DNA of 64,000 nucleotides from a bacterium. Its GTDB lineage: Bacteria; Patescibacteriota; Minisyncoccia; Minisyncoccales; GWA2-46-15. Below, piece by piece: positions 3,227 through 59,885 of this stretch. Each line of letters starts with the position of its first letter. Positions within the stretch are counted from its first letter, which is position 1. The notes under the pieces are model-generated. The model was not told where the DNA came from, did not search any database, and saw nothing but the letters and a program-made list of their open reading frames with translations. The stretch covers positions 19,202-83,201 of the forward strand of contig JAUYCZ010000028.1 of assembly GCA_030704795.1 (NCBI GenBank), read 5' to 3'. The translations under genes and the position numbers were made by a program.

Positions 3227-4678
3227 TTAGCTATTGTTCATTTTCCCTTTTAGATTCGGGCTTGTCAATAAAAGCGGCAGCTGGTAGATGTCGCCGGCAC
3301 CCATCACTACGAGGACTTCTTCACTCCGGAGATTTTTTTTGAGGTATGGCGCTGTTTCTTTGAGCGTGGGGATATACAATGTCTTTATATCTTGTATCTT
3401 GTATTTTGTATTTTGTATTTTTGAGATGGCTAAGGCCAGTTTTTTGGAGCTGACTTTCTTTTTGATGGTTGGACTTTCGCGGCCGGCAACGCTATAGATA
3501 TCAATCAGAATTAATTTGTCGATTGGCGCTTGACTCAAGACTCTGACAAAGTCTTTGAAGAGGTGGTAAGTTCTCTGATATTGATGGGGCTGGAAAACGC
3601 AGCTAATCTTTTTTCGGGGATATTTTTCCCGAACGGCTTTGAGCGTCACCTCAATTTCGGTCGGATGATGAGCGTAATCACTAACAATTATTATCTTCCG
3701 CGTTGTTCCGCGTAGTTCAGCGGTCGTGATTTCGAATCGGCGCCAGGCGCCGCGATATTCTCCCAAAGCCCTAAAGCTGATTTTGTCAGGAATTTTTAAG
3801 ATTCTGGCCGTGGCCAGCGCCGCCAAAGCATCTGCCAAAATGTGTTCCCCGGGAATTTTGAGAATCTTTTTTAGTTTTTTGGAGTCGCGCGATTTTGATA
3901 ATTGAAAATTTATAATTGAAAATTGATTGGAAATTGCCCCTCGGTCCTGAGCTCGGGGTCGAAGGAGTAATTGAAAATTGGAAATTAACTTCCGGGTATT
4001 TTCATCGTTTTTATTGATAACTAAATACCCTTTTTTCGGCAAATGTCTAATAAATTTCTTGAAGACTTTGATGATGTTGCTAAGGTTTTTAAAGTAGTCC
4101 AGGTGATCTCTGTCGATCGTGGTCAAAACAATTATCTGGGGCCAATAATTCAAAAAAGAACTTTTGTATTCATCCGCCTCAATGACCAGGTACTGGGATT
4201 TTCCCGGCCGATAGTTGCTGTCACCGAATTCTTTGAGCTTGGTGCCGACAATGACGGTTGGATCCAGCCCCGCCTTAATCAAAATCAAAGAAATTATGGC
4301 GGTAGTCGTGCCCTTGCCGTGGGTGCCGCAGACGGCAATGGTGAAATAGTTCTTAGTCAGCTTACCCAAGGCCTGAGGATAACTTTGGCATTTAATCTTT
4401 AATTGTTTTGCCCTTTTTAATTCCGCGTTCTGGTTTTGAATGGCCGGGCTGTAAATCACCAAATCTGGCCTCTTTGCCCTATCTTTTGCTTTGAGGTTTG
4501 GGTTGACCACTCTTTTGTCATTGGGCCCGAAGAAAATCTTGGCACCGGCCTTTTCCAGTCCCCGGCTGATTTCCGAAGGCTCCAAATCCGAGCCCGTCAC
4601 CTGATGATTTTGAGACAAATAATGTCGGGCGAGAGCCGAAACGCCAATACCGTTGATACCGATAAAATGGAGGCGCAT
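3227..4678 (-). CDS. murC: UDP-N-acetylmuramate--L-alanine ligase
   Basis: N-terminal HFIGINGIGVSALA and the Mur-ligase P-loop GTHGKGTTT. Length 483 aa. Confidence 0.9.
   Translation of the reverse strand: MRLHFIGINGIGVSALARHYLSQNHQVTGSDLEPSEISRGLEKAGAKIFFGPNDKRVVNPNLKAKDRAKRPDLVIYSPAIQNQNAELKRAKQLKIKCQSYPQALGKLTKNYFTIAVCGTHGKGTTTAIISLILIKAGLDPTVIVGTKLKEFGDSNYRPGKSQYLVIEADEYKSSFLNYWPQIIVLTTIDRDHLDYFKNLSNIIKVFKKFIRHLPKKGYLVINKNDENTRKLISNFQLLLRPRAQDRGAISNQFSIINFQLSKSRDSKKLKKILKIPGEHILADALAALATARILKIPDKISFRALGEYRGAWRRFEITTAELRGTTRKIIIVSDYAHHPTEIEVTLKAVREKYPRKKISCVFQPHQYQRTYHLFKDFVRVLSQAPIDKLILIDIYSVAGRESPTIKKKVSSKKLALAISKIQNTKYKIQDIKTLYIPTLKETAPYLKKNLRSEEVLVVMGAGDIYQLPLLLTSPNLKGKMNNS
3936..3968. 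repeat. GC-rich mini-insert (repeat family 1) inside murC, in frame
   Basis: Core CCCCTCGGTCCTGAGCTCGGGGTCGAAGG encodes LRPRAQDRGA. It is flanked by the direct duplication AATTGAAAATTG..TTGGAAATT (3914-3935 and 3969-3986). Confidence 0.6.
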
Positions 4679-11007: not shown

Positions 11008-11280
11008 TTATAGCGAAACGAGTTTCGATATATCAAATTTTCTGTTTGCTATTAAAATCAGTTTCTTTTCGCGGCGCCAGCCCTTAATTTCGGCTTCGCG
11101 CTTCAAGGCACCACTTCGGTCTTTATGTTTCTCGGTATACAATACTTTCTTCACTTTTTTTGATTGGGTATACGCCCCTCCCTTGCCTAAACTATGTTCT
11201 TTGAATCTACGTCGTATATCGGTGGTAATACCGGTATAAATTGTTCCATCTCCGCATTCGATTAAATATACAAAATACAT
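11008..11280 (-). CDS. GIY-YIG nuclease superfamily protein (UPF0213/YhbQ-like)
   Basis: YFVYLIECGDGTIYTGIT ... RFKEH ... REAEIKGW. Confidence 0.8.
   Translation of the reverse strand: MYFVYLIECGDGTIYTGITTDIRRRFKEHSLGKGGAYTQSKKVKKVLYTEKHKDRSGALKREAEIKGWRREKKLILIANRKFDISKLVSL
11009..11034. repeat. TATAGCG-hairpin-CGATATATC motif (family 4 copy)
   Basis: TATAGCGAAACGAGTTTCGATATATC, 24 nt upstream of the HD-gene ATG. Confidence 0.6.
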
Positions 11281-11284
11281 GATA

Positions 11285-11413
11285 TAAATTATGGAGCGTA
11301 CATTTGCGCTGGTGCGCTCAGTACCTCTCCCTCACATTTGTTCGGGACTTTGCTCGCCTGCGTTCTTGCCCCTCGTCGTAAAGCTCCTCGGGACTGCGTC
11401 GCTACGCTCCTTG
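11285..11413 (-). other. GC-rich non-coding spacer 3' of tRNA-Gln containing family-1 repeat cores
   Basis: Contains TTCGGGACTTTG (11341-11352) and CCCCTCGTCGTAAAGCTCCTCGGGACTGCGTC (11369-11400). No ORF. Confidence 0.5.
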
Positions 11414-11484
11414 CTGCGGGACTAGGATTCGAACCTAGATAAGCAGATCCAAAATCTGCTGTCCTACCATTAGACGATCCCGCA
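11414..11484 (-). tRNA. tRNA-Gln (UUG)
   Basis: Cloverleaf read by eye: acceptor UGCGGGA/UCCCGCA, anticodon loop UUUUGGA, T-arm GGTTCGAATCC. No encoded CCA. Confidence 0.85.
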
Positions 11485-20346: not shown

Positions 20347-22939
20347 GTTTGTTTTTAACGATAAAATAATATTTTGCCAATTCGATCAAGAAAACATTAA
20401 GCAGGCCAAGGCCGAGAATGATTTTCCAGCTGGCCAGGGGCAAAGGAACGGTGCCGAGGAGAAGATTCAGGGGTTTAAAGTACAAAGCCGCCAGTAGGGC
20501 AGCCATTCCGAAAAACCACGCCCCGATTAACATTTTATTATCAAAAGGGTTTATTTGCCAGAGGTTTCTTCTTAAGGATTTGCAGGAAAAGACATATAAA
20601 AGCGAACTAATGCCAAGGATGGCGAAGATCATTGTTCTGAGATATTCCAAGGGATAATTCTGCTTTAAGAGCCAGAAAAATACCGCCATCAGGATCAAAT
20701 TAGTAAAGAGGCCGATGATAAAAATTATCGTCTTCATTTCCGGAGTGAGAAGAGGGGCTTGGTGGCCCTTTGGTTTTTGCGACAGGGCGTCCTTTTCCTG
20801 AGGCTCGAAAGCCAAAGCCAAATTGGGCAGACCGTCTTCAATCAGGTTTATCCATAAAATCTGGACTCCAGTAATGGGCAAAGGGACCTTGGCGATAATG
20901 GCGGCCGTCACGAGCAGGATTTCCGTAAAACTATCAGAGAGTAAATAAGTGATTATTTTTCTGATGTTGTCAATGATCGCCCTGCCTTCTTTAACCGCGG
21001 CCGTGATAATGGCAAAACTGTCATTGAGTAAAACTAGATCCGCGGTTTCTTTGGCGACTTCGGTTCCCGAACCCAAAACGATGCCGATATCCGCTTTTTT
21101 TAGAGCCGGCGCGTCATTGACCCCGTCCCCGGTCATGGCCACCACTTCTCCTTTTTTCTGCCAGGCGCTAACAATTTTGAGCTTTTGCTCGGGCTCCATC
21201 CGGTAGTAGATTTTAATATCATCGATGATTTTCTCCAGTTCGGTTTCGGAAAGTTTTTCCAGTTCTTCGCCGGAAAGAATATTTTTTCCCTCAATTTTAA
21301 AACCGAGCTCTTCCGCCACCGCTTTGGCGGTTAATTGGTGGTCACCAGTGGCGAAAATCACTTTAATTCCCCCGGCCTCGCACTCTTTAATTGCCTCTTT
21401 AACCTCTTTTCTGACCGGATCTTTGAGAGCGATCAGGCCGGTAAATGTCAGGTTTTCGGCCATTGCCTCAAGCGGCAAGTTTATGACTTCTTCCGGGGAG
21501 ATTTGGCGGAAAGCCGTGGCCAGAACCCGCCAGCCTTTTGAGGTCATTTCTTCTAGTTTTTTGCGCTTCTCCGGCGCATTCGCCGACGAATCAGAAGATT
21601 TTTCAAAAATTATTTCCGGCGCGCCCAAAAAGTAAATAATATTACCTTCCGGAGTTTGTCTCAAACTGGCCGAATATTTGTAGAGCGGGCTAAACAAAGC
21701 CTCTCTGATTTCCGGCTCTTTTTTCTCAAGCTCTTTTTTGTCCAAGCCGGCTTTGGCGGCCGCTAAAACAAGAGCTTTTTCTGTCGCTTCTCCTCTGACG
21801 ATCCATTGATCTTCAGGGTCTTGCGGATTTTCGAGAAAAGCCCGGCTGCAGGCCAGGCCGATTTTTAAAGGCAAAAGAAAGTTTTCCGGTCCTTCGACTC
21901 GGCTCAGGACAGGCCAGATTTCGGCCACCGCCATTTTTGCTTCTGTCAGGGTGCCGGTTTTGTCGGTAATGATGACAGTCGTGCTGCCCAAGGTCTCGGC
22001 CGAGACCAGTTTTTTTACCAACCCTTGTTTCTTTAAGATTCTTTGCATGCCCAGGGCCAGCACAACGGTCATGGCGATGGGCAGGCCTTCGGGAATGGCG
22101 GCGATCGCCACGGCCAGGCTGACGGTAAACATTTCAATAAATTCTTTGCCGGCGAGAATTCCTTGAAGAAAAACACCAGCGCAAATTAAGCTAATAAAAA
22201 TAGCGACAATTTTTGAAAAACGCGCCAGTTTTTTTTGGTAAGGCGTTTTTTCCTCTTTGATTTCTTTGATTAAGCCGGCAATTTTCCCTAATTGGGTGTG
22301 GCGGCCGGTCTCGATCACCACCGCCTGGCCGCTTCCTTCTTCAACAACGGTGCCGGCAAAAACCAGATTTTTCCTTTCGGCCAGGGGTGTTTGGCTGGGC
22401 AGAGCGTCCGTGTTTTTTCTTGAAGGCAGCCATTCTCCGGTCAGGATTGATTCATTGAGGCTTAAATCGCGACCGTCAATCACTCGGGCGTCGGCAGAAA
22501 CCTTATCCCCCGGATTTAAAATAATAATGTCTCCGGGTACCAAGTCTTGAGCATCGATCAGTTTAAAACTCCCCTTTCTTAAGACCTGGGCCTCAAGTTT
22601 TATTATTTTTCTTAATTCTGCCAGAGTTTTCGTGGCTTTTCTTTCCTGAAAAAAACCGACAACGGTGTTTAAAAAAACCGCGGCAAAAATGATGGCGGCG
22701 TCGGTCAACGCTCTAAAAAACAAGGTCACGACTCCTCCGATCGCCAGGATATAAATTAAGGGGCTGCGAAACTGCTCGAGAAAAATTCTTAAATCAGAAA
22801 ACAGCTTTTCTTGGGGCAGCTGGTTCCGGCCGAATTTTTCCTGCCTTATTTTTACTTCTTCTTGAGTCAGGCCGGTTTCTGGATTAGTTTCTAGCTTTTC
22901 CAGCGTCTCTTCGATTGTCAGACTGTGCCACATTTCCAT
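20339..22939 (-). CDS. P-type cation-transporting ATPase (type IIA, Ca2+-ATPase-like)
   Basis: Motifs DKTGTLT, TGDGVNDAPALK and IPEGLP in M4. Confidence 0.85.
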   Translation of the reverse strand: MEMWHSLTIEETLEKLETNPETGLTQEEVKIRQEKFGRNQLPQEKLFSDLRIFLEQFRSPLIYILAIGGVVTLFFRALTDAAIIFAAVFLNTVVGFFQERKATKTLAELRKIIKLEAQVLRKGSFKLIDAQDLVPGDIIILNPGDKVSADARVIDGRDLSLNESILTGEWLPSRKNTDALPSQTPLAERKNLVFAGTVVEEGSGQAVVIETGRHTQLGKIAGLIKEIKEEKTPYQKKLARFSKIVAIFISLICAGVFLQGILAGKEFIEMFTVSLAVAIAAIPEGLPIAMTVVLALGMQRILKKQGLVKKLVSAETLGSTTVIITDKTGTLTEAKMAVAEIWPVLSRVEGPENFLLPLKIGLACSRAFLENPQDPEDQWIVRGEATEKALVLAAAKAGLDKKELEKKEPEIREALFSPLYKYSASLRQTPEGNIIYFLGAPEIIFEKSSDSSANAPEKRKKLEEMTSKGWRVLATAFRQISPEEVINLPLEAMAENLTFTGLIALKDPVRKEVKEAIKECEAGGIKVIFATGDHQLTAKAVAEELGFKIEGKNILSGEELEKLSETELEKIIDDIKIYYRMEPEQKLKIVSAWQKKGEVVAMTGDGVNDAPALKKADIGIVLGSGTEVAKETADLVLLNDSFAIITAAVKEGRAIIDNIRKIITYLLSDSFTEILLVTAAIIAKVPLPITGVQILWINLIEDGLPNLALAFEPQEKDALSQKPKGHQAPLLTPEMKTIIFIIGLFTNLILMAVFFWLLKQNYPLEYLRTMIFAILGISSLLYVFSCKSLRRNLWQINPFDNKMLIGAWFFGMAALLAALYFKPLNLLLGTVPLPLASWKIILGLGLLNVFLIELAKYYFIVKNKRD

Positions 22940-23816: not shown

Positions 23817-24851
23817 ATGAATAATAACGATAAGAAACTCCAGATGTACTTTTTTGCCGTCCTGTTTTTAGGCGTTTTGTTTTTGGCGGTTTTTGTCTTT
23901 CTGCCATTTTTTATTCCGCTTTCGGTTGCCGCGGCGCTGGCGATTCTCTGCCGACCGTTCTACGAGCGGGTTGTCCGCTTAACCTACGGTCGCGAAGGTC
24001 TGTCAGCGTTTTTGACGGTTGTCGCGATGGTTCTTATTCTCTTGGCGCCGCTGACGCTCATCGGTATGATGGTGTTTCAAGAGGCGCGGGAACTTTCCCT
24101 GCAAATCAGTCCCTCGGGCGGAACGCTCGGGACCTTCGGCCTGCCGGCATTCATCGAAGAACAAGCGGCCCGCTTCTTTCCCGAGTTTTCATTGAATTTT
24201 AATGCCTATGCCCGTCAGGTCGTCAATTGGCTGGTGCAAAATCTCGGGATGATTTTTGCGGGAATCGTCCAGGTTTTGCTCAGCCTCTTTTTGGGCCTTA
24301 TGGCGTTTTACTACTTTCTTAAAGACGGCAGGAAACTGATCCATGCCGTTATGGCGCTTAGCCCTTTGCCGGACGAGCATGATCGGGAAATTTTAACTAA
24401 ACTCACAAACGCCATCAATTCTGTTATCAGGGGTTCGCTGGTTGTCGCCGCCATTCAGGGAATTTTATCAGGCGTTGGCTTGGCTATTTTTGGAGTTCCT
24501 AATCCCGCACTTTTCGGCAGTATCGCGGCCGTGGCGGCATTGATTCCGGGCATCGGGACCAGCTTGGTGCTTCTGCCCGCCATCGCCTATCTTTTTATCG
24601 CCGGTTCAATCGCTCCCGCCGTCGGCCTTCTCGTCTGGGCGGTTGTCATTGTCGGGCTGGTTGACAATATCCTGGGGCCGAAACTGATGGGACAAGGAAT
24701 TCCCGTTCACCCCTTTTTAATTCTTCTTTCGGTCATTGGCGGCTTGGGATTTTTTGGCCCGATCGGCTTTTTGCTCGGCCCCCTTGTTATTAGCCTGCTT
24801 TTTGCTTTAATTGAAATATATCGCCTGTATAATGCAAAGAAAACATTTTGA
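23817..24851 (+). CDS. AI-2E family transporter (PerM/UPF0118)
   Basis: Polytopic with a typical AI-2E C-terminal core. 23817 is the first ATG; the track start at 23781 is TTG. Confidence 0.7.
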   Translation: MNNNDKKLQMYFFAVLFLGVLFLAVFVFLPFFIPLSVAAALAILCRPFYERVVRLTYGREGLSAFLTVVAMVLILLAPLTLIGMMVFQEARELSLQISPSGGTLGTFGLPAFIEEQAARFFPEFSLNFNAYARQVVNWLVQNLGMIFAGIVQVLLSLFLGLMAFYYFLKDGRKLIHAVMALSPLPDEHDREILTKLTNAINSVIRGSLVVAAIQGILSGVGLAIFGVPNPALFGSIAAVAALIPGIGTSLVLLPAIAYLFIAGSIAPAVGLLVWAVVIVGLVDNILGPKLMGQGIPVHPFLILLSVIGGLGFFGPIGFLLGPLVISLLFALIEIYRLYNAKKTF

Positions 24852-43109: not shown

Positions 43110-45335
43110 ATGAAATTAAGTTTGAATAAGAAAAAATGGCTGAGTCTGGTCTTGGCCGCCCTCTTTCTGACATTCCTGGCCAGTTTTTATCTGCAGCATC
43201 AGCTCGTCTCGCTTTATCGCCAGCAAGCCTCCTCTTTGGTCGAAGACCGGGAAGGTCGTGTTATTGCCATCCGGCCCAATCGCCAGGGATATTTTAACCG
43301 TCCAGTTGTTAATCTGCCCGCTAGGATGGCCGATCTTTTAGTTAAAAAGGAAGACCGATTTTTTTACTACCATAACGGCGTCAACCCGATTAGTATTATC
43401 AAAGCCTCTTTTGGCTATTTAGGGTTGGGCCAGAGAAAGGCCTCAAGCACCATTAGCCAACAGTTGGCCAAAATTCTTTTAGGCAACGAGCTGCGGCGAA
43501 CCGGGCAGAATAAACTCAAGGAAACCCTCTACGCTTTGAGTCTGGAGATTTTCCAGCCCAAGCGAGAAATCTTGAAAATGTATGCCAACTCCATTTATTT
43601 TGGCTATCAGGCCCAAGGGATCTTTGAGGCCAGCCGTCTTTACTTTGGGACCGATCCCGAAATGCTCACCGAGGGGCAGGTCTTACAACTTTTAGCCACG
43701 ATTTCTGAACCGGCCGAAAACAATCCCGCCAGCGAGAATAATGAGAAAATCAGTTTAGCCATGGCTAAAAAATTCATTTTTTCTGAAGAAGGCTTGAGTT
43801 TCAGTCAAGCTGGCCAAGTCAGAGAGCAGATGAAAAAGGTTTCGCATGCGGACGATCTTTTCTTCGAATTAAAATCGTTTTTGACGGAGCCGAAAACAAT
43901 TTGCCAAACGACCTTAGACCGAGATCTGACCAGAAAAATCAGAGAAATAGTCCAACGGAACATCGAAAGCTTAAAGATAGAGAATGCCCGGAACGCGGCC
44001 GTGGTAGTTTTAAAGCTGCCCGAAAATGAGATTTTGAGTCTCATCGGTTCGCCCGATCCCAATTCCTTTGAGTCGGGTTATCAGATTAATATGCTGATGG
44101 AATTGCGACCCATTGGCTCTACCATTAAGCCTTTTATCTATCTCAAGGCCTTTGAAAAAGGGTTGAGGCCCTATACCCTGGTTGAGGATAGAGAGTACAA
44201 ATATATTACCGCCTTAGGTTTCCCTCTTTATCCTAAGAATTTTGACTATCAATACCGCGGCCGGGTCAAACTTAACTACGCCCTCTCCAATAGCCTGAAC
44301 GTGCCGGCGGTCAAAGTCCTGGAATACGTCGGTTTGGAGGATTTCTATCAATTCTGGGGAAAGGAAATGGGCTTTAAACCGAAGCAGCCCTGGAACAGCT
44401 ACCAGCTAGGTATTGCCTTGGGGGGTTTGGAAATGAGCCTCTGGGACCTGGCCAGATACTTTACCATCTTTCCCAACCAGGGCTGGCTGAAAGACGTTAA
44501 GGTTTTTCAGTCGGGAGACTGTTTTCAGCCAAAGCCAGAAACAACCAAAGAGATTGCCCAACCCGGTTTCATCCAGCTGGTCAACAAGATTCTCAATGAC
44601 CGCCAGACCGGCGTGGAACAGTTCGGCATGAAGAGCGAGCTCAATCTCTTTCAGGAAAACTATGCCCTAAAGACCGGCACTTCGCGCGATTTCAGGGACA
44701 GTTGGATTATTGGTTATACCCCCGACTTCCTGGTCGGTGTCTGGGTAGGCAATGCCGACAACTCTCCCACCGACAAGATTTCTGGCCAACAAGGCGCGGG
44801 CCTGATCTTTTCCAATATTATGGAGCTGCTCTTGAATTCCCGATACAACTCATCGAGCCTGAAGGCTCCTCAGAGCCTGAACGGCAAAAAAACTCCTTTT
44901 GACTTCAGTCTCGTCAAAGATTTCCCATCCCTCGAGGGTACTCGGGACTTTCAGTCCCTCGACTCGGCTCGGGACTTTCAGTCTGATCAGGGCCTTGATT
45001 GGGGTCTCCAGGGTGACGATTATAAGAAAACCCAAAATCTTTTATTGGCGCAAGATACTGCTTTGATATTATTGCCGCACGACGGAGATTCTTTTCTGCT
45101 CGAGCCCAATACTAAAATCATCCTGCGCGCCCGCCAGGCCGTCGACTGGTTTGTTAACAACGAGTTTATCGGTCACGGCCAGGAGCAGATTTTCATTCCC
45201 CCGACTCCCGGCAACTATCAAGTCAAAGCCCAATCCCCCACTAGTCAGGCTGAAAGTCCCGAGTATCCACGAGGGGCTGGAAGCCCCGAGCGCTCCCGAG
45301 GGGAGGAAGTTTCCATTTCTGTCCTGGGCGAGTAG
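43110..45335 (+). CDS. pbpC: Bifunctional class A penicillin-binding protein, PBP1C-type
   Basis: GT51 motifs EDRFFYYHNG and STISQQLAK. Transpeptidase motifs STIKPF, SNS and KTGTS. C-terminal BiPBP_C-like segment W.VNNEFIG...PGNYQVKA. AAGGAGG RBS. Confidence 0.85.
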   Translation: MKLSLNKKKWLSLVLAALFLTFLASFYLQHQLVSLYRQQASSLVEDREGRVIAIRPNRQGYFNRPVVNLPARMADLLVKKEDRFFYYHNGVNPISIIKASFGYLGLGQRKASSTISQQLAKILLGNELRRTGQNKLKETLYALSLEIFQPKREILKMYANSIYFGYQAQGIFEASRLYFGTDPEMLTEGQVLQLLATISEPAENNPASENNEKISLAMAKKFIFSEEGLSFSQAGQVREQMKKVSHADDLFFELKSFLTEPKTICQTTLDRDLTRKIREIVQRNIESLKIENARNAAVVVLKLPENEILSLIGSPDPNSFESGYQINMLMELRPIGSTIKPFIYLKAFEKGLRPYTLVEDREYKYITALGFPLYPKNFDYQYRGRVKLNYALSNSLNVPAVKVLEYVGLEDFYQFWGKEMGFKPKQPWNSYQLGIALGGLEMSLWDLARYFTIFPNQGWLKDVKVFQSGDCFQPKPETTKEIAQPGFIQLVNKILNDRQTGVEQFGMKSELNLFQENYALKTGTSRDFRDSWIIGYTPDFLVGVWVGNADNSPTDKISGQQGAGLIFSNIMELLLNSRYNSSSLKAPQSLNGKKTPFDFSLVKDFPSLEGTRDFQSLDSARDFQSDQGLDWGLQGDDYKKTQNLLLAQDTALILLPHDGDSFLLEPNTKIILRARQAVDWFVNNEFIGHGQEQIFIPPTPGNYQVKAQSPTSQAESPEYPRGAGSPERSRGEEVSISVLGE
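44929..44982 (+). repeat. Family-1 repeat, 2 x 27 bp tandem, in frame in pbpC
   Basis: CCCTCGAGGGTACTCGGGACTTTCAGT followed by CCCTCGACTCGGCTCGGGACTTTCAGT. These encode SLEGTRDFQ and SLDSARDFQ. Confidence 0.85.
45250..45303 (-). repeat. Family-1 repeat, 2 x 27 bp, inverted orientation, in frame in pbpC
   Basis: CTGAAAGTCCCGAGTATCCACGAGGGG matches the reverse complement of 44929-44955 at 24 of 26 positions. The second unit is more diverged. Confidence 0.85.
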
Positions 45336-45338
45336 TTT

Positions 45339-45359
45339 GTGCGAAGCTTAGCTTCGCAC
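45339..45359 (+). terminator. Hairpin after pbpC (part of the left island end)
   Basis: GTGCGAAGC-TTA-GCTTCGCAC. No T-run, followed by TTGACA (45365-70). Confidence 0.45.
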
Positions 45360-45532
45360 GATCCTTGACATTTCAATGACTTTATGAAAAACTATCGTAT
45401 CTCTCCTTGTTGGCTTTCTGGTAATAAATCTTGTTGCTAGAAAGCCGGCAAGGATGACTGGCCCGTTGGTTCCGCAAGGCGGAATACGGTCAAAAGCGAT
45501 CTTTCCCAGCCCAAGGGGCAAGGAGTAGAAAA

Positions 45533-46096
45533 ATGGGAAAAAGTAGCTTGAAAGGGAATGAACTGACTTCCCTAGTGGAACGAGCGTCAGCGCTCCAAAA
45601 AGCCAGTAGAGGGTACCGAGACGGCGCTGCTGAAAGCGCCCGGTTGGCCCTCGACGAGTTAGTCCTTCAGATTCTGCGAGACCACCTCGAACAGGTAGTC
45701 TTGCGTCTGGATCCCAGGAAGTCACAGGCTTGGGATGACTTCTACGCAGTTCTAGAAGTCGAGGCGAACTCGGTGGTTCTGCGGATGCCAGTTCCTAAAC
45801 TCAAGTCGAAAGACTCAGAGCTGGCAAACAGGATTCGGACGAAGATCGTCCGGGAGGAAGAAATGGAAGCAACAATCATTGCGGTGATACTCGTCGTAGG
45901 AGGGATTGGGTTCATCGTAAAGATGCTTCGTCAAAGAGACGACGGAAATGGGTACGACTACATCGGTTACCTTGGCGCTGATGGCAAACCTTGCGACGCA
46001 ATTGGGTTAGCACGGTTTTGTCCCACCAAGAAAGAAGCCGAGGCCGTTGCTCGAGCGTTCGGCTACAAAGTAGAACGCGAGGAGATGAAACGATGA
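45533..46096 (+). CDS. GC-rich hypothetical protein with one central TM segment (187 aa)
   Basis: AAGGAG RBS 7 nt upstream. TM segment ATIIAVILVVGGIGFIV. No motif recognised. Confidence 0.55.
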   Translation: MGKSSLKGNELTSLVERASALQKASRGYRDGAAESARLALDELVLQILRDHLEQVVLRLDPRKSQAWDDFYAVLEVEANSVVLRMPVPKLKSKDSELANRIRTKIVREEEMEATIIAVILVVGGIGFIVKMLRQRDDGNGYDYIGYLGADGKPCDAIGLARFCPTKKEAEAVARAFGYKVEREEMKR

Positions 46097-46350
46097 AGAT
46101 CATCTTAAACGGTTTGAACGTCACTCTCGCTGAAGTTTTGACTAGACTTCAGGAAGAGGGCGCGCCTCGCTTCGCGGTAGCCCTATCGCGAAGTGATTAC
46201 GCCAAGAATCCCAACGAAAGAAAGCCAGGTAACGCCGTGATCGTTATGACCGCTGCTGAATTCCAGAAGTTAGAAGAAGAGCAACGACATACGGTCGAAA
46301 TGGTATTGGCAGCTCAACAGTTGGGTGCCCAAGTTGTTTTCCGTAGCTAG
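46093..46350 (+). CDS. GC-rich hypothetical protein (85 aa)
   Basis: ATGA start/stop overlap with the upstream ORF, and GAGGAG upstream. A terminator follows. Confidence 0.55.
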   Translation: MKIILNGLNVTLAEVLTRLQEEGAPRFAVALSRSDYAKNPNERKPGNAVIVMTAAEFQKLEEEQRHTVEMVLAAQQLGAQVVFRS

Positions 46351-46362
46351 TAGAGCTTAAAG

Positions 46363-46405
46363 GAGACTCAACGCCTTAGAAAAAGGAGTTGAGTCTTTTT
46401 ATTTT
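46363..46405 (+). terminator. Rho-independent terminator
   Basis: GACTCAAC (46365-72) / GTTGAGTC (46388-95), then TTTTTATTTT. Confidence 0.65.
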
Positions 46406-46430
46406 GGCGAGTCGCCAAGGACTGCGGCAT

Positions 46431-46544
46431 AAGCTGATTAAACAGCTATTGTTTTACGACAAAATAGCTCCCGGCCAATATCAAATCAAAGCCCAATCCC
46501 CCACCGCCCAGTCGGAAGAAATCACGATTTTTCTCAACCAGTAA
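46431..46544 (+). pseudogene. Orphan remnant of an alternative/ancestral pbpC 3' end
   Basis: Translates to KLIKQLLFYDKIAPGQYQIKAQSPTAQSEEITIFLNQ*. Shares the identical 19-nt TCAAAGCCCAATCCCCCAC with 45223-45241. No start codon or upstream ORF. Confidence 0.75.
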
Positions 46545-46552
46545 ATAAATCA

Positions 46553-46574
46553 GCACCCGAGATTTCTCGAGTGC
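46553..46574. terminator. Hairpin terminator (presumed original pbpC terminator, also serves the minus-strand small-ORF operon)
   Basis: GCACCCGAG-ATTT-CTCGAGTGC. A T-rich tract follows on the minus strand. Confidence 0.55.
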
Positions 46575-46598
46575 CGATTCGATTTGGCGTCGGTTGCG

Positions 46599-46739
46599 TT
46601 ATTCTTCGATGAAAAAGAGCGACGTGAAACCGGCGGCGAGCAACCCTTCGGTGGGGACGACATGAAAGATGCCGTTGATGATGAGCCCCAGCGCGAGCGC
46701 TCCGTACACGATCTTGCGCAACTGTCGATTGGTCAACAT
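46599..46739 (-). CDS. Small hydrophobic protein (46 aa), not in the ORF track
   Basis: GGAGGTG RBS 7 nt before the ATG. Sequence MLTNRQLRKIVYGALALGLIINGIFHVVPTEGLLAAGFTSLFFIEE. A terminator follows. Confidence 0.5.
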   Translation of the reverse strand: MLTNRQLRKIVYGALALGLIINGIFHVVPTEGLLAAGFTSLFFIEE

Positions 46740-46781
46740 GGCCAATCACCTCCTTTGAAACTCAGATTGTCGTTCGTTCGG

Positions 46782-46946
46782 CTAGCGAGTCGGCGGCGCG
46801 CCCGGTCGACAATGGGCGCAACGAAAAAGGTGCTTGTGTCGGCGTCCGGGCTTTGCCAGACAAGTAAACCCATGTTTACACATCACGCTACACTTTCCAT
46901 TGTCTCGGGACCGCCGCGGCCGATTCTTCCGCAGAAAATCGAACAT
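46782..46946 (-). CDS. Small basic Cys-rich (zinc-ribbon-like) protein (54 aa), not in the ORF track
   Basis: AAGGAGG 5 nt before the ATG. Sequence MFDFLRKNRPRRSRDNGKCSVMCKHGFTCLAKPGRRHKHLFRCAHCRPGAPPTR. Consensus promoter upstream. Confidence 0.45.
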   Translation of the reverse strand: MFDFLRKNRPRRSRDNGKCSVMCKHGFTCLAKPGRRHKHLFRCAHCRPGAPPTR

Positions 46947-46981
46947 CCATACCTCCTTGGTCTGGGATACGTACTGGATAA

Positions 46982-47009
46982 ATTATAGCACTAATAATAT
47001 AAATGTCAA
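46982..47009 (-). promoter_or_regulatory. Consensus sigma70-type promoter
   Basis: Minus strand TTGACA (47009-04), 16 nt, TGCTATAAT (TATAAT 46987-82). Confidence 0.65.
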
Positions 47010-47047
47010 GAGTTTGTGCGAAGCGAAATTTCGCCTAGCACAAATCA
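47001..47047. repeat. Right island end, an imperfect inverted copy of 45334-45373
   Basis: Shares AAATGTCAAG, GTGCGAAGC and GCACAAA blocks with the reverse complement of the left end. AGTTTGTGCGAAGC (47011-24) is also a direct repeat of 45334-47. Confidence 0.6.
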
Positions 47048-47049
47048 AT

Positions 47050-47081
47050 CAAAAAGCACACATCATGGATCGATGTGTGCT
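47050..47081 (-). terminator. Rho-independent terminator
   Basis: AGCACACATC/GATGTGTGCT stem, followed on the minus strand by TTTTTGATT. Confidence 0.7.
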
Positions 47082-47096
47082 CTGTTTGAAGGGCGA

Positions 47097-47381
47097 TCAC
47101 TTCACTGGGAGGAACGTGATTACCACGAGGAGGGTGCCACCGATCAAGCAGGCGCCCGCCAGGAAGTACCAGACGAGTGACGTCTGATGGTAAGCGGTAG
47201 CATAATTTGGCGCCGCTTTTGGCGTCCCTCGTCCACTTGCCTCTGATGCGCCACGCTGATACTCATCTGGTCCATAGCGGTGGATGTCCGTTTCCGCTTT
47301 TCGGCTTTCTTTGCGCCCTTCGCGCCAAAAGAAAACGCCTACCAGAAAAAGGATCGCCCCGATAATTTGCAATGTTAGCAT
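47097..47381 (-). CDS. GC-rich two-TM small protein (94 aa)
   Basis: ATG at 47381 preceded by AAGGAG. TM segments LQIIGAILFLVGVFFW and LVWYFLAGACLIGGTLLVVITFL. Confidence 0.55.
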   Translation of the reverse strand: MLTLQIIGAILFLVGVFFWREGRKESRKAETDIHRYGPDEYQRGASEASGRGTPKAAPNYATAYHQTSLVWYFLAGACLIGGTLLVVITFLPVK

Positions 47382-47420
47382 TGCACACTCCTTTCCTTTC
47401 TGCGGTTTATCCGCATAAAA

Positions 47421-47449
47421 ATTATACAATACTTAATTAAATTAGTCAA
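47421..47449 (-). promoter_or_regulatory. Near-consensus sigma70-type promoter
   Basis: Minus strand TTGACT (47449-44), 17 nt, TGTATAAT (TATAAT 47426-21), then leader hairpin TGCGG-ATAAA-CCGCA. Confidence 0.65.
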
Positions 47450-47506
47450 TACATCATCAAAAATCTCCGATTAGTATCGGGAATATTAGGCTCAGAGAAT
47501 AATTGA

Positions 47507-57068: not shown

Positions 57069-59885
57069 TTATTGTTTAAGAATATCCCCCAGTCGTCTGA
57101 TGGCCTCGCCGTAGGTTGCCCAGTCGCCATCCCTTTGCGCTCGGAGCGCTTCCTCGTACGCCCCCAACGCTCTGCGTCTGCGCTCCTCCATATCCCTCGG
57201 GGCTGAGTCCTCGGGACGAACGCCTTGAGAGGGCTTTACTCCTGCTTCACGGCCAGCCGGCCGAGGCAGGCCAAAGATTTTCGCCAGCCCCTCTTCGAGC
57301 GTCTCTTCCATGGCAATTTTATTTTCATAGGCCACCACCACCCGTTTTAACTCGGGAATTTTTCCGGCTTGGGCCTTGAGATAGAGCGGACGCACATACA
57401 AAAGCGATTCTTCAATCGGAATGACCAAAAGCGGACCTTGGATTACTTGCGACCCGCCTTGGCTCCAGAGCGTAATCTGCTGACTAATCTCGGAGTCCTG
57501 ATTAATCCTACCGATGATTTGTTTGGGTCCGAAGACGAGCTTGTCTTTAGGAAAACGATAGACCGATAACTTGCCGTAATTTTCCCCATCGTTGCGGGCG
57601 ACCATCCAAGCGGATAAGTTGTCTTTTGCCCGGGGAGTAAAGGGCAGCATTAAAATATATTCCTCTTTCTTCTCGCCCGGCAATTTCATAATGATGTGCC
57701 GTGGTTGCATCGGCGGGATGCCGCCCGCGGATGTTCCTGCCTCCGCCTGCCTGCCGGCAGGCAGGGCAAGCGGGCCTTCTCCTTCTGAGGCAATAGTGGG
57801 GATTTCCCACTGGTCCTCTTTGTTGTAAAAAATCTGAGGATCGTCCATATGATAGACAGAATAAACGGCCGTCTGCAGGGTAAAGATATCCTCGGGATAG
57901 CGCAGATGGGGAACCAGGCTCTCGGGCATCTCTGACATCGGCCGGAATGTTCCGGGAAAAATCTTGCCATAAGTTTTGATAATCGGATCCTCTGTATCCG
58001 CCTGATAGAAGACAACGCTGCCGTTATAGGCGTCAACCACCGCTTTGACCGAGTTTCTGATGTAGTTTATATTTCCGCCGTTTAACCGCATCGGCTGCGA
58101 ATAAGGATAACGGTCGCTGGTGGTGTAGGCATCAACAATCCAGTAGACCTTGCCATCAGCGATGACAATATATGGATCTCGGTCAAAGGTTAAAAACGGC
58201 GCGATCTTGGCCACCCTATCGGCAATGGTGCGGTAGTAGAGAATGCGGCTCTCTTGGATTATGTCGTTGGACAAAAGCAGTTTAAGCGACTGGAATTTCA
58301 CCGCGTAAAAAACGCGTCTTAAAAAAGAGCTTATCTCCACCCCGCCCTTACCTTCATATGTCGCATAGACATTTTCTTCGCCCTTGGGGTAGTCAAACTC
58401 GCGGGATTTTGTTTTGGTAATGACATAGTCGTTTGAAAGCTCGCCGAAATAGATTTCCGGGCGCGAAATTTCAAGCTCTTTCACGTCTGATTTGGGCGGC
58501 AAATCTTTAACGAACAAAACCGGCAGTCCTTCCGGGGTAACTTGATTGACCGGTCCGGCGGCCACGCCGTAGCCGTGCGTAAATGTCAGCCGCTCGTTAA
58601 TCCAATTTCTATTCGGCAGGCTGGCCGAAGCGAGCTCCCGGGGGGAAAGCATAATCTGGCGAATTTCTCCGTCGATGATATAACGATCATTATCAACTTC
58701 GGCAAACTCGTAATAGGTTCTGATTTCTTGTATCTGGGAAAAAGTTGATAAAAGGGGTTTTCTGTCCCAAAGCCGTACATTTTTGACCGTGAGATTATTG
58801 TTCGCGATATCAGACACGGTGATCGGTTTATCTCCCGAGATTTCCCGTTCCTCAATTTTATCAAGCGCAAACCCCTGACGGGTAGCGGCGATATTGTGCT
58901 CAATAAACGGCGTTTCTTTTACGAGCTCGTTGGGGGCGACAATCAATTTTTGGACAAGAAACGGAATCATTGCTCCGGCGAACCCAACGACAACAGATAA
59001 AGAAACGGCTCCGATCAGCGGCGCTAACCTTCCTTTCCACGCCCAAAGAGCCGCCGAGACGGCCGCGAGCACGACCGTCGCCATTGAAATCCAAAGCATG
59101 AATATTCTCACGGTTGCGTCCGTATATGTCGCGCCGAAGACTAAACCGCTTTGGCTCGTGAGCAGCGCAAAACGGGAAAGATAGATTTCGGCGGCAATGG
59201 TTGAAAGAAAAATGGCTAGTAAGATGCCAAGATGGATTCTTGCCCCGCGGTCTATTTGTATATCATTAAGTGATCGTGCGTTTGCGATATAAAGCATGCC
59301 TCGCAAAAAATAGATGATCGCGCAACCGGCGAGCGATAAGAGAATGAGGAATTTTATCAACCCCAATCCTATTTGAAAGACCGGGAGAGAGAACAGGTAA
59401 AAACTGATATCCTGGCCAAAGACGGGATCGGCCGCGCCGAAAGCCGTGCTGGAAATGTATTTCAGCATCTCCGGCCAACTGAGAGCGGCCACTAGTCCGA
59501 AAAAAAGCGCGACGATCACGCTCAAGACAACGGCCGATTTTTTAATCAGGCGACCGTCTACCTCCATCGGCCGGTCGGAGGTCCCGAGTATCCCCGAGGG
59601 ACCGATCAACGCCGCCGGTAAAACCGCCGTCCACCCTGAGCTCTTCGAATGGGTTGAACGAAGCGCTAAAAAGAAGTTGGCGAGCAAAAAAACTGCGGCA
59701 AAAATTCCCGCTGACGAAAATAAGGCTATTTTAGCGAGGAGAGATTTAATAAAGATTTGCGTGTGGCCAACCTCGGAAAACCACCACCAATCAGTAACAA
59801 AGTCAACAATGCCTGGAAGAAAAACAGAAACAGCGAAAAACGCGATGATGACGAAAAGCTTTGTTGTTTTAAATCTGTTCATCAT
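57069..59885 (-). CDS. UPF0182 family membrane protein
   Basis: 938 aa. N-terminal TDWWWFSEVGH and several TM segments, then a large soluble region typical of UPF0182 (COG1615). Confidence 0.65.
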   Translation of the reverse strand: MMNRFKTTKLFVIIAFFAVSVFLPGIVDFVTDWWWFSEVGHTQIFIKSLLAKIALFSSAGIFAAVFLLANFFLALRSTHSKSSGWTAVLPAALIGPSGILGTSDRPMEVDGRLIKKSAVVLSVIVALFFGLVAALSWPEMLKYISSTAFGAADPVFGQDISFYLFSLPVFQIGLGLIKFLILLSLAGCAIIYFLRGMLYIANARSLNDIQIDRGARIHLGILLAIFLSTIAAEIYLSRFALLTSQSGLVFGATYTDATVRIFMLWISMATVVLAAVSAALWAWKGRLAPLIGAVSLSVVVGFAGAMIPFLVQKLIVAPNELVKETPFIEHNIAATRQGFALDKIEEREISGDKPITVSDIANNNLTVKNVRLWDRKPLLSTFSQIQEIRTYYEFAEVDNDRYIIDGEIRQIMLSPRELASASLPNRNWINERLTFTHGYGVAAGPVNQVTPEGLPVLFVKDLPPKSDVKELEISRPEIYFGELSNDYVITKTKSREFDYPKGEENVYATYEGKGGVEISSFLRRVFYAVKFQSLKLLLSNDIIQESRILYYRTIADRVAKIAPFLTFDRDPYIVIADGKVYWIVDAYTTSDRYPYSQPMRLNGGNINYIRNSVKAVVDAYNGSVVFYQADTEDPIIKTYGKIFPGTFRPMSEMPESLVPHLRYPEDIFTLQTAVYSVYHMDDPQIFYNKEDQWEIPTIASEGEGPLALPAGRQAEAGTSAGGIPPMQPRHIIMKLPGEKKEEYILMLPFTPRAKDNLSAWMVARNDGENYGKLSVYRFPKDKLVFGPKQIIGRINQDSEISQQITLWSQGGSQVIQGPLLVIPIEESLLYVRPLYLKAQAGKIPELKRVVVAYENKIAMEETLEEGLAKIFGLPRPAGREAGVKPSQGVRPEDSAPRDMEERRRRALGAYEEALRAQRDGDWATYGEAIRRLGDILKQ
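57194..57217. repeat. Family-1 repeat core in the UPF0182 CDS
   Basis: CCCTCGGGGCTGAGTCCTCGGGAC, encoding part of VRPEDSAPRD. Confidence 0.55.
57746..57765. repeat. Family-2 perfect 20-nt palindrome in the UPF0182 CDS
   Basis: CCTGCCTGCCGGCAGGCAGG, within the segment LALPAGRQAEAG. Confidence 0.8.
59581..59600. repeat. Family-1 repeat core in the UPF0182 CDS
   Basis: GTCCCGAGTATCCCCGAGGG matches 45257-45276 at 19 of 20 positions. It encodes GPSGILGT. Confidence 0.8.

Follow-up and report, generated by a model that had tools for sequence, protein, structure and literature searches.

Intragenic REPs (GTAG- or CGTC-tagged palindromic repeats) are found as singles, dimers and clusters, at times with two dimers in the same gene; they lengthen the protein by roughly 10–30 residues and have been interpreted as tolerated insertions into loops or linkers (Di Nocera et al. 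2013; PMC3733652). The RPEs of Rickettsia are selfish palindromic DNA carried in frame in functional genes, housekeeping genes included, and their copies are compatible with protein function since they encode surface segments (PMC3733652). MITEs are small non-coding repeats of 70–300 bp with terminal inverted repeats and target-site duplications, and IS200/IS605 elements have hairpin-centred ends, make no target-site duplication and prefer single-stranded or hairpin DNA. REP and MITE families are usually high-copy per genome, and classic RPE-1 is about 100–150 bp long.

A repeat comparable to these was analysed in a 64-kb window (the whole stretch of DNA studied here), in the gene for a PBP1C-type penicillin-binding protein with the following features:

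43110–45335, plus strand: gene for a PBP1C-type penicillin-binding protein of 741 aa, host of the inserts (ORF, Pfam).
44851–44886, plus strand: third in-frame lineage-specific insert, 36 nt, SSSLKAPQSLNG (gap in 39/39 homologues and in L001).
44928–44954, plus strand: unit B1, TCCCTCGAGGGTACTCGGGACTTTCAG, read as SLEGTRDFQ (R1 covariance model, 42.2 bits; Tandem Repeats Finder).
44955–44981, plus strand: unit B2, TCCCTCGACTCGGCTCGGGACTTTCAG, read as SLDSARDFQ (R1, 41.6 bits; part of the 54-nt gap against L001).
44982–45249, plus strand: coding sequence of the native BiPBP_C-like C-terminal β-domain, between the blocks (collinear with all homologues; Pfam BiPBP_C; AlphaFold2 β-strands at 629–708).
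45250–45276, minus strand: unit C1, reverse complement CCCCTCGTGGATACTCGGGACTTTCAG, the plus strand being read as (A)ESPEYPRG (R1, 39.8 bits).
45277–45303, minus strand: unit C2, reverse complement CCCCTCGGGAGCGCTCGGGGCTTCCAG, read as AGSPERSRG (R1, 35.1 bits).

Block B (44928–44981, plus strand) and block C (45250–45303, reverse complement) each consist of two head-to-tail copies of a 27-nt unit; the register used begins one base before that of the first-pass annotation, hence the position given for block B. Period-27 arrays were detected with Tandem Repeats Finder at 44928–44983 (2.1 copies, 82% matches) and 45248–45303 (2.1 copies), and a repeat search gave inverted-repeat arms of 58 nt (44929–44986 and 45245–45302), 76% complementary and 258 nt apart. 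The two inverted 54-bp blocks of tandem 27-bp units described in the first-pass annotation are real, and its further observations were reproduced: both blocks are translated in frame within the 741-aa ORF 43110–45335 (block B as SLEGTRDFQ-SLDSARDFQ, block C as ESPEYPRGAGSPERSRG), the 267 nt between them encode a BiPBP_C-like domain (Pfam match at residues 652–707), and C1 agrees with the reverse complement of B1 at 24/26 positions, or 24/27 with the leading pyrimidine counted. Among the units, B1 and C1 resemble each other most, B2 and C1 agreeing at only 20/27, and C2 is the most diverged of the four units; the longest perfect identity shared by the arms is 16 nt. With up to three mismatches allowed, B1 had exactly one further match in the 64 kb, the reverse-strand C1, and none of 100 shuffled sequences gave any match; the inverted blocks are far beyond chance. 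The four canonical units of the window all lie in pbpC, inside 375 bp. An independent Logan assembly of SRR13727536 (L002) was identical to the window over 12,306 nt, so the blocks are not an artefact of a single assembly pipeline.

The PBP1C protein matched the Pfam domains Transgly (66–211), Transpeptidase (297–572) and BiPBP_C (652–707), and its nearest homologues are Nealsonbacteria/Parcubacteria proteins of 658–728 aa. Blocks B and C and the third insert were missing from all 39 aligned PBP1C homologues. Alignment with L001, the closest relative (82% aa identity), leaves a clean gap of 54 nt at each block site, with a boundary ambiguity of only 2–6 nt, and the unit covariance model found no match in the DNA of L001. 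Since the 39 homologues and the DNA of the closest relative lack both blocks, each gap being exactly 54 nt, the alignments show that B and C are insertions. The first-pass annotation had come to the same view of block C from an orphan copy of the gene end (see below); the homologues and L001 provide the stronger evidence.

In the AlphaFold2 model, pLDDT fell below 50 within the C-terminal 160 residues only at 583–593, 609–627 and 712–730. These three segments are the three inserts, and they have no secondary structure and confident strands on either side. Block B sits in the linker ahead of the BiPBP_C domain and block C in the loop ahead of the last β-strand of the domain; all three inserts are predicted to occupy disordered loops. 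The third insert holds GAGCCTGAA twice, 18 nt apart. Its LKAPQSLNG resembles LKVPSTLEG, with a 14/27 nt match, and derivation from a decayed 27-nt unit was considered; the R1 covariance model gave no match over 44851–44886, and such an origin is not claimed.

Downstream of the domain, two further features were distinguished:

45336–47506: 2.17 kb from the pbpC stop codon to a convergent alpha-2-macroglobulin gene (L001 gene table, ORFs).
46466–46544, plus strand: orphan copy of the pbpC 3′ end (…PGQYQIKAQSPTAQSEEITIFLNQ*) (82% direct repeat; three-way alignment).

The segment 44982–45249 has approximately 70% nucleotide identity to L001 versus 90–98% upstream, and the live C-terminal part of pbpC looks like a replaced, more divergent segment. 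Positions 46468–46517 are 82% identical to 45205–45254 (a 50-nt direct repeat), and ORF 46389–46544 terminates in YQIKAQSPTAQSEEITIFLNQ*, without block C. In a three-way alignment, the orphan 3′ end was closer to the 3′ end of L001 than the live 3′ end is. The orphan end had been read as a natural empty site for block C; it exists, lacks the block and behaves accordingly, and judged from the alignment it is the ancestral end of the gene as well as an empty site. In L001 the interval corresponding to the 2.17-kb stretch measures only some 27 nt, from the end of pbpC at 3398 to the start of the following gene at 3425. The stretch contains ORFs 45533–46096 and 46093–46350, neither with a Pfam or PHROG match, and a small membrane ORF at 47097–47429 (minus strand). 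The orphan 3′ end and the extra 2.17 kb make it clear that the region has been rearranged. Two independent events may not account for four units in 375 bp that exactly bracket a single domain, and B and C may have come together from a donor with the replaced C-terminal segment instead of being inserted in this genome.

A census of the 27-bp unit, as proposed in the first-pass annotation, gave many further copies, mostly in other genomes and read in several frames. The consensus in 55 non-redundant instances is Y-CCCTCG-RNNNNR-CTCGGGACTTTCAG, with (C) at the 3′ end. An exact-pattern scan (20 specified bases) gave 15 genome loci and 55 metagenome loci, the chance expectation being, by our own calculation, about 1 match in 596 Gb. 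The hosts are CPR/Patescibacteria, Stahlbacteria, Phycisphaerae and MAGs labelled Gammaproteobacteria, and the GC content of the unit-bearing loci ranges from 32% to 69%; twenty positions are near-invariant over this range, the same 20 being enforced by the search pattern. These positions look more like a constrained functional site than like decaying junk. The B1 27-mer is identical, variable loop included, to a unit at the unrelated locus L040, and identical 27-mers of the GGAATA type were found in L029, L033/L042 and L059. The unit is an interspersed repeat across several phyla.

Housekeeping genes are frequent hosts of the unit in CPR bacteria. In-frame copies were located in LigA, NusB, YebC, PheT, IleRS, RsmI, ABC-F, L3, L31 and RluD, the chief reading frames giving SL..ARDFQ, AESPE..RG and LKVPS..EG; on alignment of LigA and RsmI with solved structures, the extra residues fell exactly at the units. 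What is conserved in the unit is its nucleotide sequence and not a peptide. It comprises 9 codons and, as read from its sequence, is open in 5/6 frames, so that copies in DNA for surface loops would add only a short disordered peptide and survive. Units also occur commonly in non-coding DNA, and are found single, as dimers and in longer arrays; dimers and arrays run head-to-tail at a period of 27, shortened to 26 where the array is non-coding. Some units lie within the loops of different hairpin repeats, and L016 holds an empty hairpin, CCCTCTCCCTTAAAAAGGGAGAGGG, adjoining copies that are filled with the unit. Array copy number changes rapidly between near-identical relatives: between near-identical flanks, the pair L062/L063 carried arrays of 2 versus 4 units, and the pair L027/L041 arrays of 3 versus at least 4, the L041 array running to the contig end.

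The stem of the unit consists of CCC/GGG plus a G–C pair around a conserved 2 × 2 internal mismatch, which on the complementary strand would be tandem G·A. Stem cells were paired in 99.6% of cases, with compensatory changes at 2/4 pairs (e.g. CCT...AGG), a thin support for pairing and covariation since the search pattern itself fixed most stem bases; in the standard energy model, single units were not more stable than shuffled sequence. Rfam 15 gave no family over the unit in the window at E up to 5, in the 15 genome loci at the gathering threshold or in 16 small loci at E up to 1, and a known RNA family was discarded on this ground. A CRISPR array was rejected as well, the units abutting without spacers inside conserved ORFs. 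Phage or plasmid origin was dismissed on a single IMG/VR match, which shares its contig with a match from a soil metagenome, and on BLAST against plasmids and phages, which returned no match under a low-complexity filter that may hide tandem repeats. Literature searches by sequence string or typical peptide strings returned no relevant paper, and no CPR-specific report of intragenic repeats was found.

Elsewhere in the window, two related sequences lie in the UPF0182 gene (57069–59885):

57194–57217, plus strand: related hairpin, CCCTCGGGGCTGAGTCCTCGGGAC, antisense in the UPF0182 gene, read as GVRPEDSAPRD (covariance and pattern scans, alignments).
59575–59601, minus strand: further copy of the hairpin unit, TCCCTCGGGGATACTCGGGACCTCCGA, in frame as PSGILGTSD (R1, 21.7 bits).

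Opposite the copy at 59575–59601, 39 homologues have a 9-aa gap, and the DNA of L074 and L075 is without exactly these 27 nt, with no target-site duplication; insertion without target-site duplication is seen at this one cleanly resolved site. The hairpin at 57194–57217 is common only to P0153/L075 among the homologues examined. The pattern CCCTCG-N4-10-CTCGGG occurs 8 times in the window versus 0.15 expected, and besides the 4 canonical units, which are all in pbpC, the 64 kb contain one diverged but clear unit and approximately 5 related hairpins; the canonical unit with the ACTTTCAG tail is confined to one gene. A hairpin at 3938–3965 in MurC, considered as a candidate insertion, showed no clear gap against solved MurC structures.

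Like a REP, the unit is an imperfect palindrome able to form a stem-loop, its 27 nt lying within the REP range of 20–40 bp, and it is found between genes and inside ORFs, single or as a dimer, with two dimers in pbpC. It differs in that the consensus of the 55 non-redundant instances has no GTAG or CGTC tag at either end, its dimers are head-to-tail whereas REP dimers are predominantly head-to-head or tail-to-tail, its stem has the conserved 2 × 2 internal mismatch, its canonical copy number in the 64-kb window is low, no RAYT gene was found in the window and fetched loci with approximate queries, and near-identical units span very distant phyla. With RPEs it shares in-frame copies that are absent from orthologues (PBP1C, UPF0182, LigA and RsmI, the latter two versus solved structures), but RPE-1 is several times longer and restricted to Rickettsia, while the 27-nt unit forms tandem arrays and occurs in CPR and other phyla. 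It resembles MITEs as a small non-coding repeat with presence/absence polymorphism that is sometimes found in genes; unlike MITEs of 70–300 bp, its ends (YCCCTCG... and ...ACTTTCAG) are not mutual inverted repeats, and the UPF0182 copy is without duplication. Blocks B and C were also considered as the 54-bp terminal repeats of one MITE-like element, which was rejected on the interior being native PBP1C, collinear with all homologues. IS200/IS605 elements serve as a working analogy because the 27-nt insertion is exact and free of duplication and because units nest in the loops of other hairpins; no transposase, separate left and right ends or defined target tetranucleotide was found, and the analogy is one of mechanism, not membership.

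A tblastn search of the window and fetched loci with approximate IS200 TnpA and E. coli RAYT queries returned only a match at E = 0.08. Small GIY-YIG nuclease genes adjoin units in the window and in L035/L056, and were considered as mobilisers; a wider comparison gave a conserved tRNA-Gln–spacer–GIY-YIG arrangement whose spacer hairpins vary, rather than an element with units at its boundaries, and this candidate is at present unsupported.

The first-pass annotation had suggested that the inverted pair could promote inversion or deletion of the domain, and the geometry of inverted repeats flanking a discrete 267-nt module, in a region whose rearrangement is evident from the orphan 3′ end and the additional 2.17 kb, would suit a DNA switch of the phase-variation style with B and C as recombination sites. 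Inversion, however, yields six in-frame stop codons, simple deletion is impossible from inverted repeats, the arms are 76% complementary with perfect identity of at most 16 nt, no recombinase was recognisable with Pfam and PHROG in the two ORFs just downstream, and two independent assemblies show one orientation only. The suggestion is not supported; a switch at this locus is scarcely credible, and an invertible coding segment of the shufflon type was rejected on the stop codons, the short perfect identity of the arms, the lack of a recombinase domain in the neighbouring ORFs and the single orientation. The mRNA stem proposed in the same annotation is predicted on folding: the minimum free energy structure of 44900–45340 pairs B with C (z = −7.0), and the B:C duplex was computed at −101.6 kcal/mol versus −39.9 ± 5.0 kcal/mol for shuffled arms. 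A duplex of about 55 bp could loop out the domain segment and control decay (e.g. by RNase III) or translation of the C-terminal domain, and the UPF0182 gene of the window also bears two related hairpins in opposite orientation. Against such a device, it would be unique to this lineage, with the blocks in none of the homologues; translating ribosomes would be expected to open arm B before arm C exists; and single units are found in both orientations and in various frames, within unrelated genes as well as between genes, so that its sequence is not specific to use in an RNA device. Control through the stem is considered unlikely.

Template switching during replication copies nearby sequence as its reverse complement, and an intramolecular event of this kind (quasi-palindrome mutation) could have derived block C from B, or B from C, in keeping with the confinement of all four canonical units of the 64 kb to 375 bp and with B1 and C1 as the most similar pair (24/27). 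A mirror copy, however, predicts the pairs B1–C2 and B2–C1, whereas the best pair is B1–C1 and B2–C1 reaches only 20/27; these unit-by-unit identities rule out mirror duplication of the whole two-unit block, and template switching explains neither the unit in other genomes nor block B itself, which makes this origin improbable. Selection at the protein level, with the inserts as flexible linker or spacer peptides that position the BiPBP_C domain, would fit the location of all three inserts at domain boundaries or in loops and the likeness of tandem AESPERSxG repeats in RsmI of other CPR bacteria to linker repeats. B and C nevertheless encode unrelated peptides, being reverse complements, and other genes read the unit DNA in three or more frames, with copies also frequent outside coding sequence; selection for a linker is very unlikely.

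Blocks B and C are probably two insertions of a selfish hairpin element resembling REPs and RPEs, tolerated in loops. They would represent separate in-frame events, each of a head-to-tail dimer of the 27-nt hairpin repeat. Against this reading weigh the low canonical copy number in the 64 kb, the apparent constraint on the 20 near-invariant positions, the clustering of the four units, the look of a replaced C-terminal segment, the unremarkable stability of single units and the absence of a convincing enzyme match from the window and fetched loci. The presence of the unit at unrelated sites in several phyla, and its presence or absence between relatives, suggest the behaviour of a small non-autonomous selfish element of the REP/RPE type. 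It would be mobilised in trans, most plausibly by an enzyme that recognises single-strand hairpins or by template switching, and the inserts are presumed neutral for the PBP1C protein. Given the placement of two oppositely oriented dimers, the inverted-repeat geometry and the predicted mRNA stem would be incidental, not a designed device. It is possible, and is put forward tentatively, that the unit belongs to a new phylum-spanning class of mobile hairpins that spreads horizontally, in frame into CPR housekeeping genes, via a putative trans-acting enzyme. Such a class would be defined by the CCC/GGG stem, the conserved 2 × 2 mismatch, the ACTTTCAG tail and the lack of target-site duplication, and the 20 near-invariant positions would reflect the recognition site of the putative enzyme.

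In-frame selfish repeats have so far come mainly from Rickettsia and from a few REP-rich Proteobacteria and Verrucomicrobia. Here the behaviour is seen in the small genomes of CPR/Patescibacteria, and the PBP1C element is shared almost unchanged with Planctomycetota and Stahlbacteria. In PBP1C, the inverted repeat is most likely a by-product and not a switch. Inserts of the unit type explain odd low-complexity segments in CPR protein predictions and some breaks in metagenome assemblies. If truly mobile, the unit would rank with the smallest known elements of its kind; it would supply essential proteins with loops peculiar to a lineage, mark horizontal exchange between uncultured bacteria and offer a handle on the enzyme that moves it.

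Blocks B (units B1 and B2, 44928-44981) and C (units C1 and C2 in reverse complement, 45250-45303) of pbpC were fully confirmed as described in the first-pass annotation. Tandem Repeats Finder returned the tandem pairs as two period-27 arrays (44928-44983 and 45248-45303), and the inverted repeat was recovered with arms of 58 nt, 258 nt apart and 76% complementary. Both blocks lie inside the 741-aa ORF 43110-45335 and are translated as annotated, and the Pfam domains of the protein are Transgly, Transpeptidase and BiPBP_C (652-707), the last lying between the two blocks; the proteins related to it are PBP1Cs from Nealsonbacteria and other Parcubacteria. At up to 3 mismatches, the sole other match to unit B1 in the 64-kb window was the reverse-strand unit C1, and shuffled versions of the window gave zero matches. 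An independent Logan assembly of SRR13727536 was identical to the window across 12.3 kb, so the repeat structure is not peculiar to a single assembler.

The window PBP1C and its 39 best homologues were aligned over the C-terminal 260 residues. Neither block was present in any homologue, and three segments were found in the window protein only: SSSLKAPQSLNG, the 18-residue translation of block B and that of block C. The closest relative's DNA (L001), with the same gene order and a PBP1C of 82% protein identity, aligned to pbpC with clean gaps of 36, 54 and 54 nt, and a covariance model built for the unit found nothing in it. The proposal that block C is an insertion was upheld, both blocks being missing from the homologues and from L001. 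The remaining segment was as follows:

44851-44886, third lineage-specific in-frame pbpC insert (SSSLKAPQSLNG), two GAGCCTGAA copies 18 nt apart, predicted disordered

This insert was unmatched by the covariance model of the 27-nt unit. In an AlphaFold2 model of PBP1C (70-sequence alignment, mean pLDDT 79.7), pLDDT past residue 580 fell below 50 only at 583-593, 609-627 and 712-730; these are the three inserts, modelled with no secondary structure and flanked by confident beta-strands. Block B extends the linker ahead of the BiPBP_C domain, and block C extends the loop ahead of the domain's last strand.

Functional readings of the inverted pair were weighed. A B:C mRNA stem was predicted (fold z = -7.0; duplex -101.6 kcal/mol versus -39.9 for shuffled arms), and would be confined to this lineage. 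The suggestion that the blocks, as inverted repeats bracketing the BiPBP_C domain, act as a switch inverting it was not supported, since inversion between them would yield a truncated PBP1C and perfect identity between the arms extends over only 16 nt. Mirror duplication of one block fitted the unit identities poorly, B1 matching C1 at 24/27 positions but B2 matching C1 at only 20/27.

The surroundings of pbpC are rearranged. From the pbpC stop to the convergent alpha-2-macroglobulin gene there are 2.17 kb in the window (45336-47506) versus approximately 27 nt in L001, and this stretch holds the orphan pbpC 3' end (46466-46544) and two ORFs with no family match in Pfam or PHROG. An inverted repeat with 24-nt arms, 79% complementary, and a 3-nt loop was noted at 45404-45454, approximately 70 nt past the pbpC stop, where the extra DNA starts; it could mark a terminator or the limit of an imported segment. 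The orphan end (YQIKAQSPTAQSEEITIFLNQ-stop) is nearer to the L001 end (YQIKAQSPTGQSEEIKILLNE-stop) than the live pbpC end is. Much of pbpC, 44584-44830 included, is 90-98% identical to L001 in nucleotide sequence, and from block B onward the identity drops to approximately 70%. On the simplest reading of these alignments, the ancestral pbpC end would have been replaced by the live C-terminal part plus approximately 1.1 kb downstream, with its last approximately 80 nt remaining. This suggests a partial gene replacement, the segment probably coming from an unsampled sister lineage; the donor was not found among the 120 best homologues, of which the closest C-terminal-domain match is still the homologous protein P0002 (71%). 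Arrival of blocks B and C with the replaced segment and later insertion are both compatible with the data.

Run on the window without filters, the covariance model gave the four units of pbpC scores of 35-42 bits; the next best match, at 21.7 bits, was 59581-59600 (-). The window has 8 occurrences of the core CCCTCG-N4-10-CTCGGG versus 0.15 expected, and two of the variant CCTTCG...CTCAGG versus 0.12 expected. The unit copy and the related hairpins in other genes were as follows:

59575-59601 (-), unit copy in the UPF0182 gene (57069-59885), 9-residue insert PSGILGTSD missing in 39 homologues
57194-57217 (+), second, related hairpin in the UPF0182 gene, opposite orientation, common to only one homologue among those examined
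24110-24139 (+), related hairpin in AI-2E transporter, read SPSGGTLGTFG, candidate insert
21890-21912 (+), related hairpin in P-type ATPase, read PVLSRVEGP, candidate insert
3938-3965, related hairpin in MurC, read LRPRAQDRG, candidate insert, no clear gap against solved MurC structures

DNA comparison with two relatives showed the UPF0182 copy to be an insertion of exactly 27 nt, with unambiguous boundaries and no target-site duplication. These examples indicate that in-frame hairpin inserts are general in this genome, beyond pbpC. The UPF0182 membrane-protein gene carries two oppositely oriented hairpin inserts, as pbpC does, but across 2.4 kb. Elsewhere in the window, at 11008-11484 (-), tRNA-Gln is immediately followed by a small GIY-YIG nuclease gene (90 aa), and the 130-nt spacer separating them contains hairpin-repeat units; this order was also seen in other CPR contigs (L076, L087/L089, L075), and many homologues of the gene are on very short contigs.

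The pattern CCCTCG-N6-CTCGGGACTTTCAG (20 specified bases) was scanned against one genome per species (596 Gb) and gave 15 loci versus approximately 1 expected by chance by our own calculation. Carriers were Patescibacteria (Saccharibacteria, Nomurabacteria and Parcubacteria included), two Stahlbacteria MAGs (two matches each), one Phycisphaerae MAG (69% GC, two matches) and two MAGs labelled Gammaproteobacteria; 55 more loci came from a metagenome collection and one from a viral collection. After removal of duplicates, 55 unit instances with flanks were compared. The unit centre has six variable bases with a purine at either end, a pyrimidine directly precedes the unit in 54/55 instances and C directly follows it in 38/55. 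The same 27-mers, variable centre too, recur at unrelated loci, B1 itself being also at the unrelated locus L040. No Rfam family matched the unit, and no paper containing its sequence was found in the literature searched.

The stem consists of CCC/GGG and a G-C pair surrounding a conserved 2x2 internal mismatch, which we infer to be tandem G.A on the complementary strand. CCT...AGG variants are compensatory in the G.A register and not in the shifted register favoured by the energy model; evidence for the stem is thin, most stem positions being fixed by the search pattern. Single units were not more stable than shuffled sequence.

Long stop-free stretches contain 35 of the 63 non-redundant instances, a total that counts the four units of the window and a few instances carrying up to 4 mismatches. 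Host genes include those for LigA, NusB, YebC, PheT, IleRS, RsmI (with three units in tandem), an ABC-F ATPase, ribosomal proteins L3 and L31, and RluD, and several reading frames are used, chiefly SL..ARDFQ, AESPE..RG. and LKVPS..EG. Comparison with solved structures placed the extra residues of LigA exactly at LKVPSAAEG, and approximately 30 extra residues of RsmI exactly where its three units are encoded. Stahlbacteria, Phycisphaerae and others carry the unit within the loop of a longer hairpin, the stem of which varies by lineage, and locus L016 has an empty hairpin (CCCTCTCCCTTAAAAAGGGAGAGGG) at the same locus as a filled one. Near-identical relatives differ in array length (2 units against 4, and 3 against at least 4), and the period can be 26 nt in non-coding arrays and is 27 nt in coding copies. 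The RsmI array of a low-GC CPR lineage (L027 546-626, L041 1-128) is read as AESPERSxG repeats; one sample carries 3 units of it, and a near-identical sample at least 4. MAGs labelled Gammaproteobacteria (L062 59-111, L063 509-613, L017/L066/L072) carry non-coding arrays of 2 to 4 units, with 26-nt variant units and CCT...AGG compensatory stems, adjoining a sub-threshold AdoCbl-II riboswitch-like match (approximately 27 bits versus a gathering score of 36.5). Intergenic regions of L005, L013, L015, L016, L029, L043 and L068 are mosaics in which several further families of short hairpin repeats are combined (e.g. CCCTCTCCC...GGGAGAGGG, GTCCTGAG...CGAAGGAC and GTCTTTGCGAGCGAAGCGAAGCAA), several with the stem broken by a GA/AG-type mismatch; together with the 27-nt unit these may form one wider superfamily.

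REPs inside ORFs occur as singles and dimers, at times as two dimers per gene, and have been interpreted as insertions that loops tolerate, in a paper that also points back to the in-frame Rickettsia RPEs (Di Nocera et al., PMC3733652). Blocks B and C behave the same way. The unit has no tag and therefore does not belong to the GTAG or CGTC REP families of those authors; it also differs in that its dimers are head-to-tail and in being near-identical across distant phyla, which is unusual.

The unit is most likely a small non-autonomous selfish element, which would be copied into new sites and afterwards expand or contract locally. This reading is drawn from the exact unit-length insertions without duplication, the nesting in hairpin loops, the fast-changing tandem arrays, the identical subtypes at unrelated loci and the presence/absence differences among relatives. 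The lack of duplication on insertion speaks against a DDE-type MITE, and is compatible either with transposition through recognition of single-strand hairpins, as in IS200/IS605 or REP-RAYT systems, or with template switching into an array already present. A tblastn search of the window and collected loci with IS200 TnpA and E. coli RAYT queries revealed no convincing mobilising enzyme (one hit, E = 0.08), and no RAYT gene is known for the unit. The unit spans 9 codons, five of its six frames are open, and selection would simply keep the copies landing in loops; together these would be sufficient for two dimers to flank a compact domain. The interest of the finding is in the repeat family, not in the geometry of pbpC.
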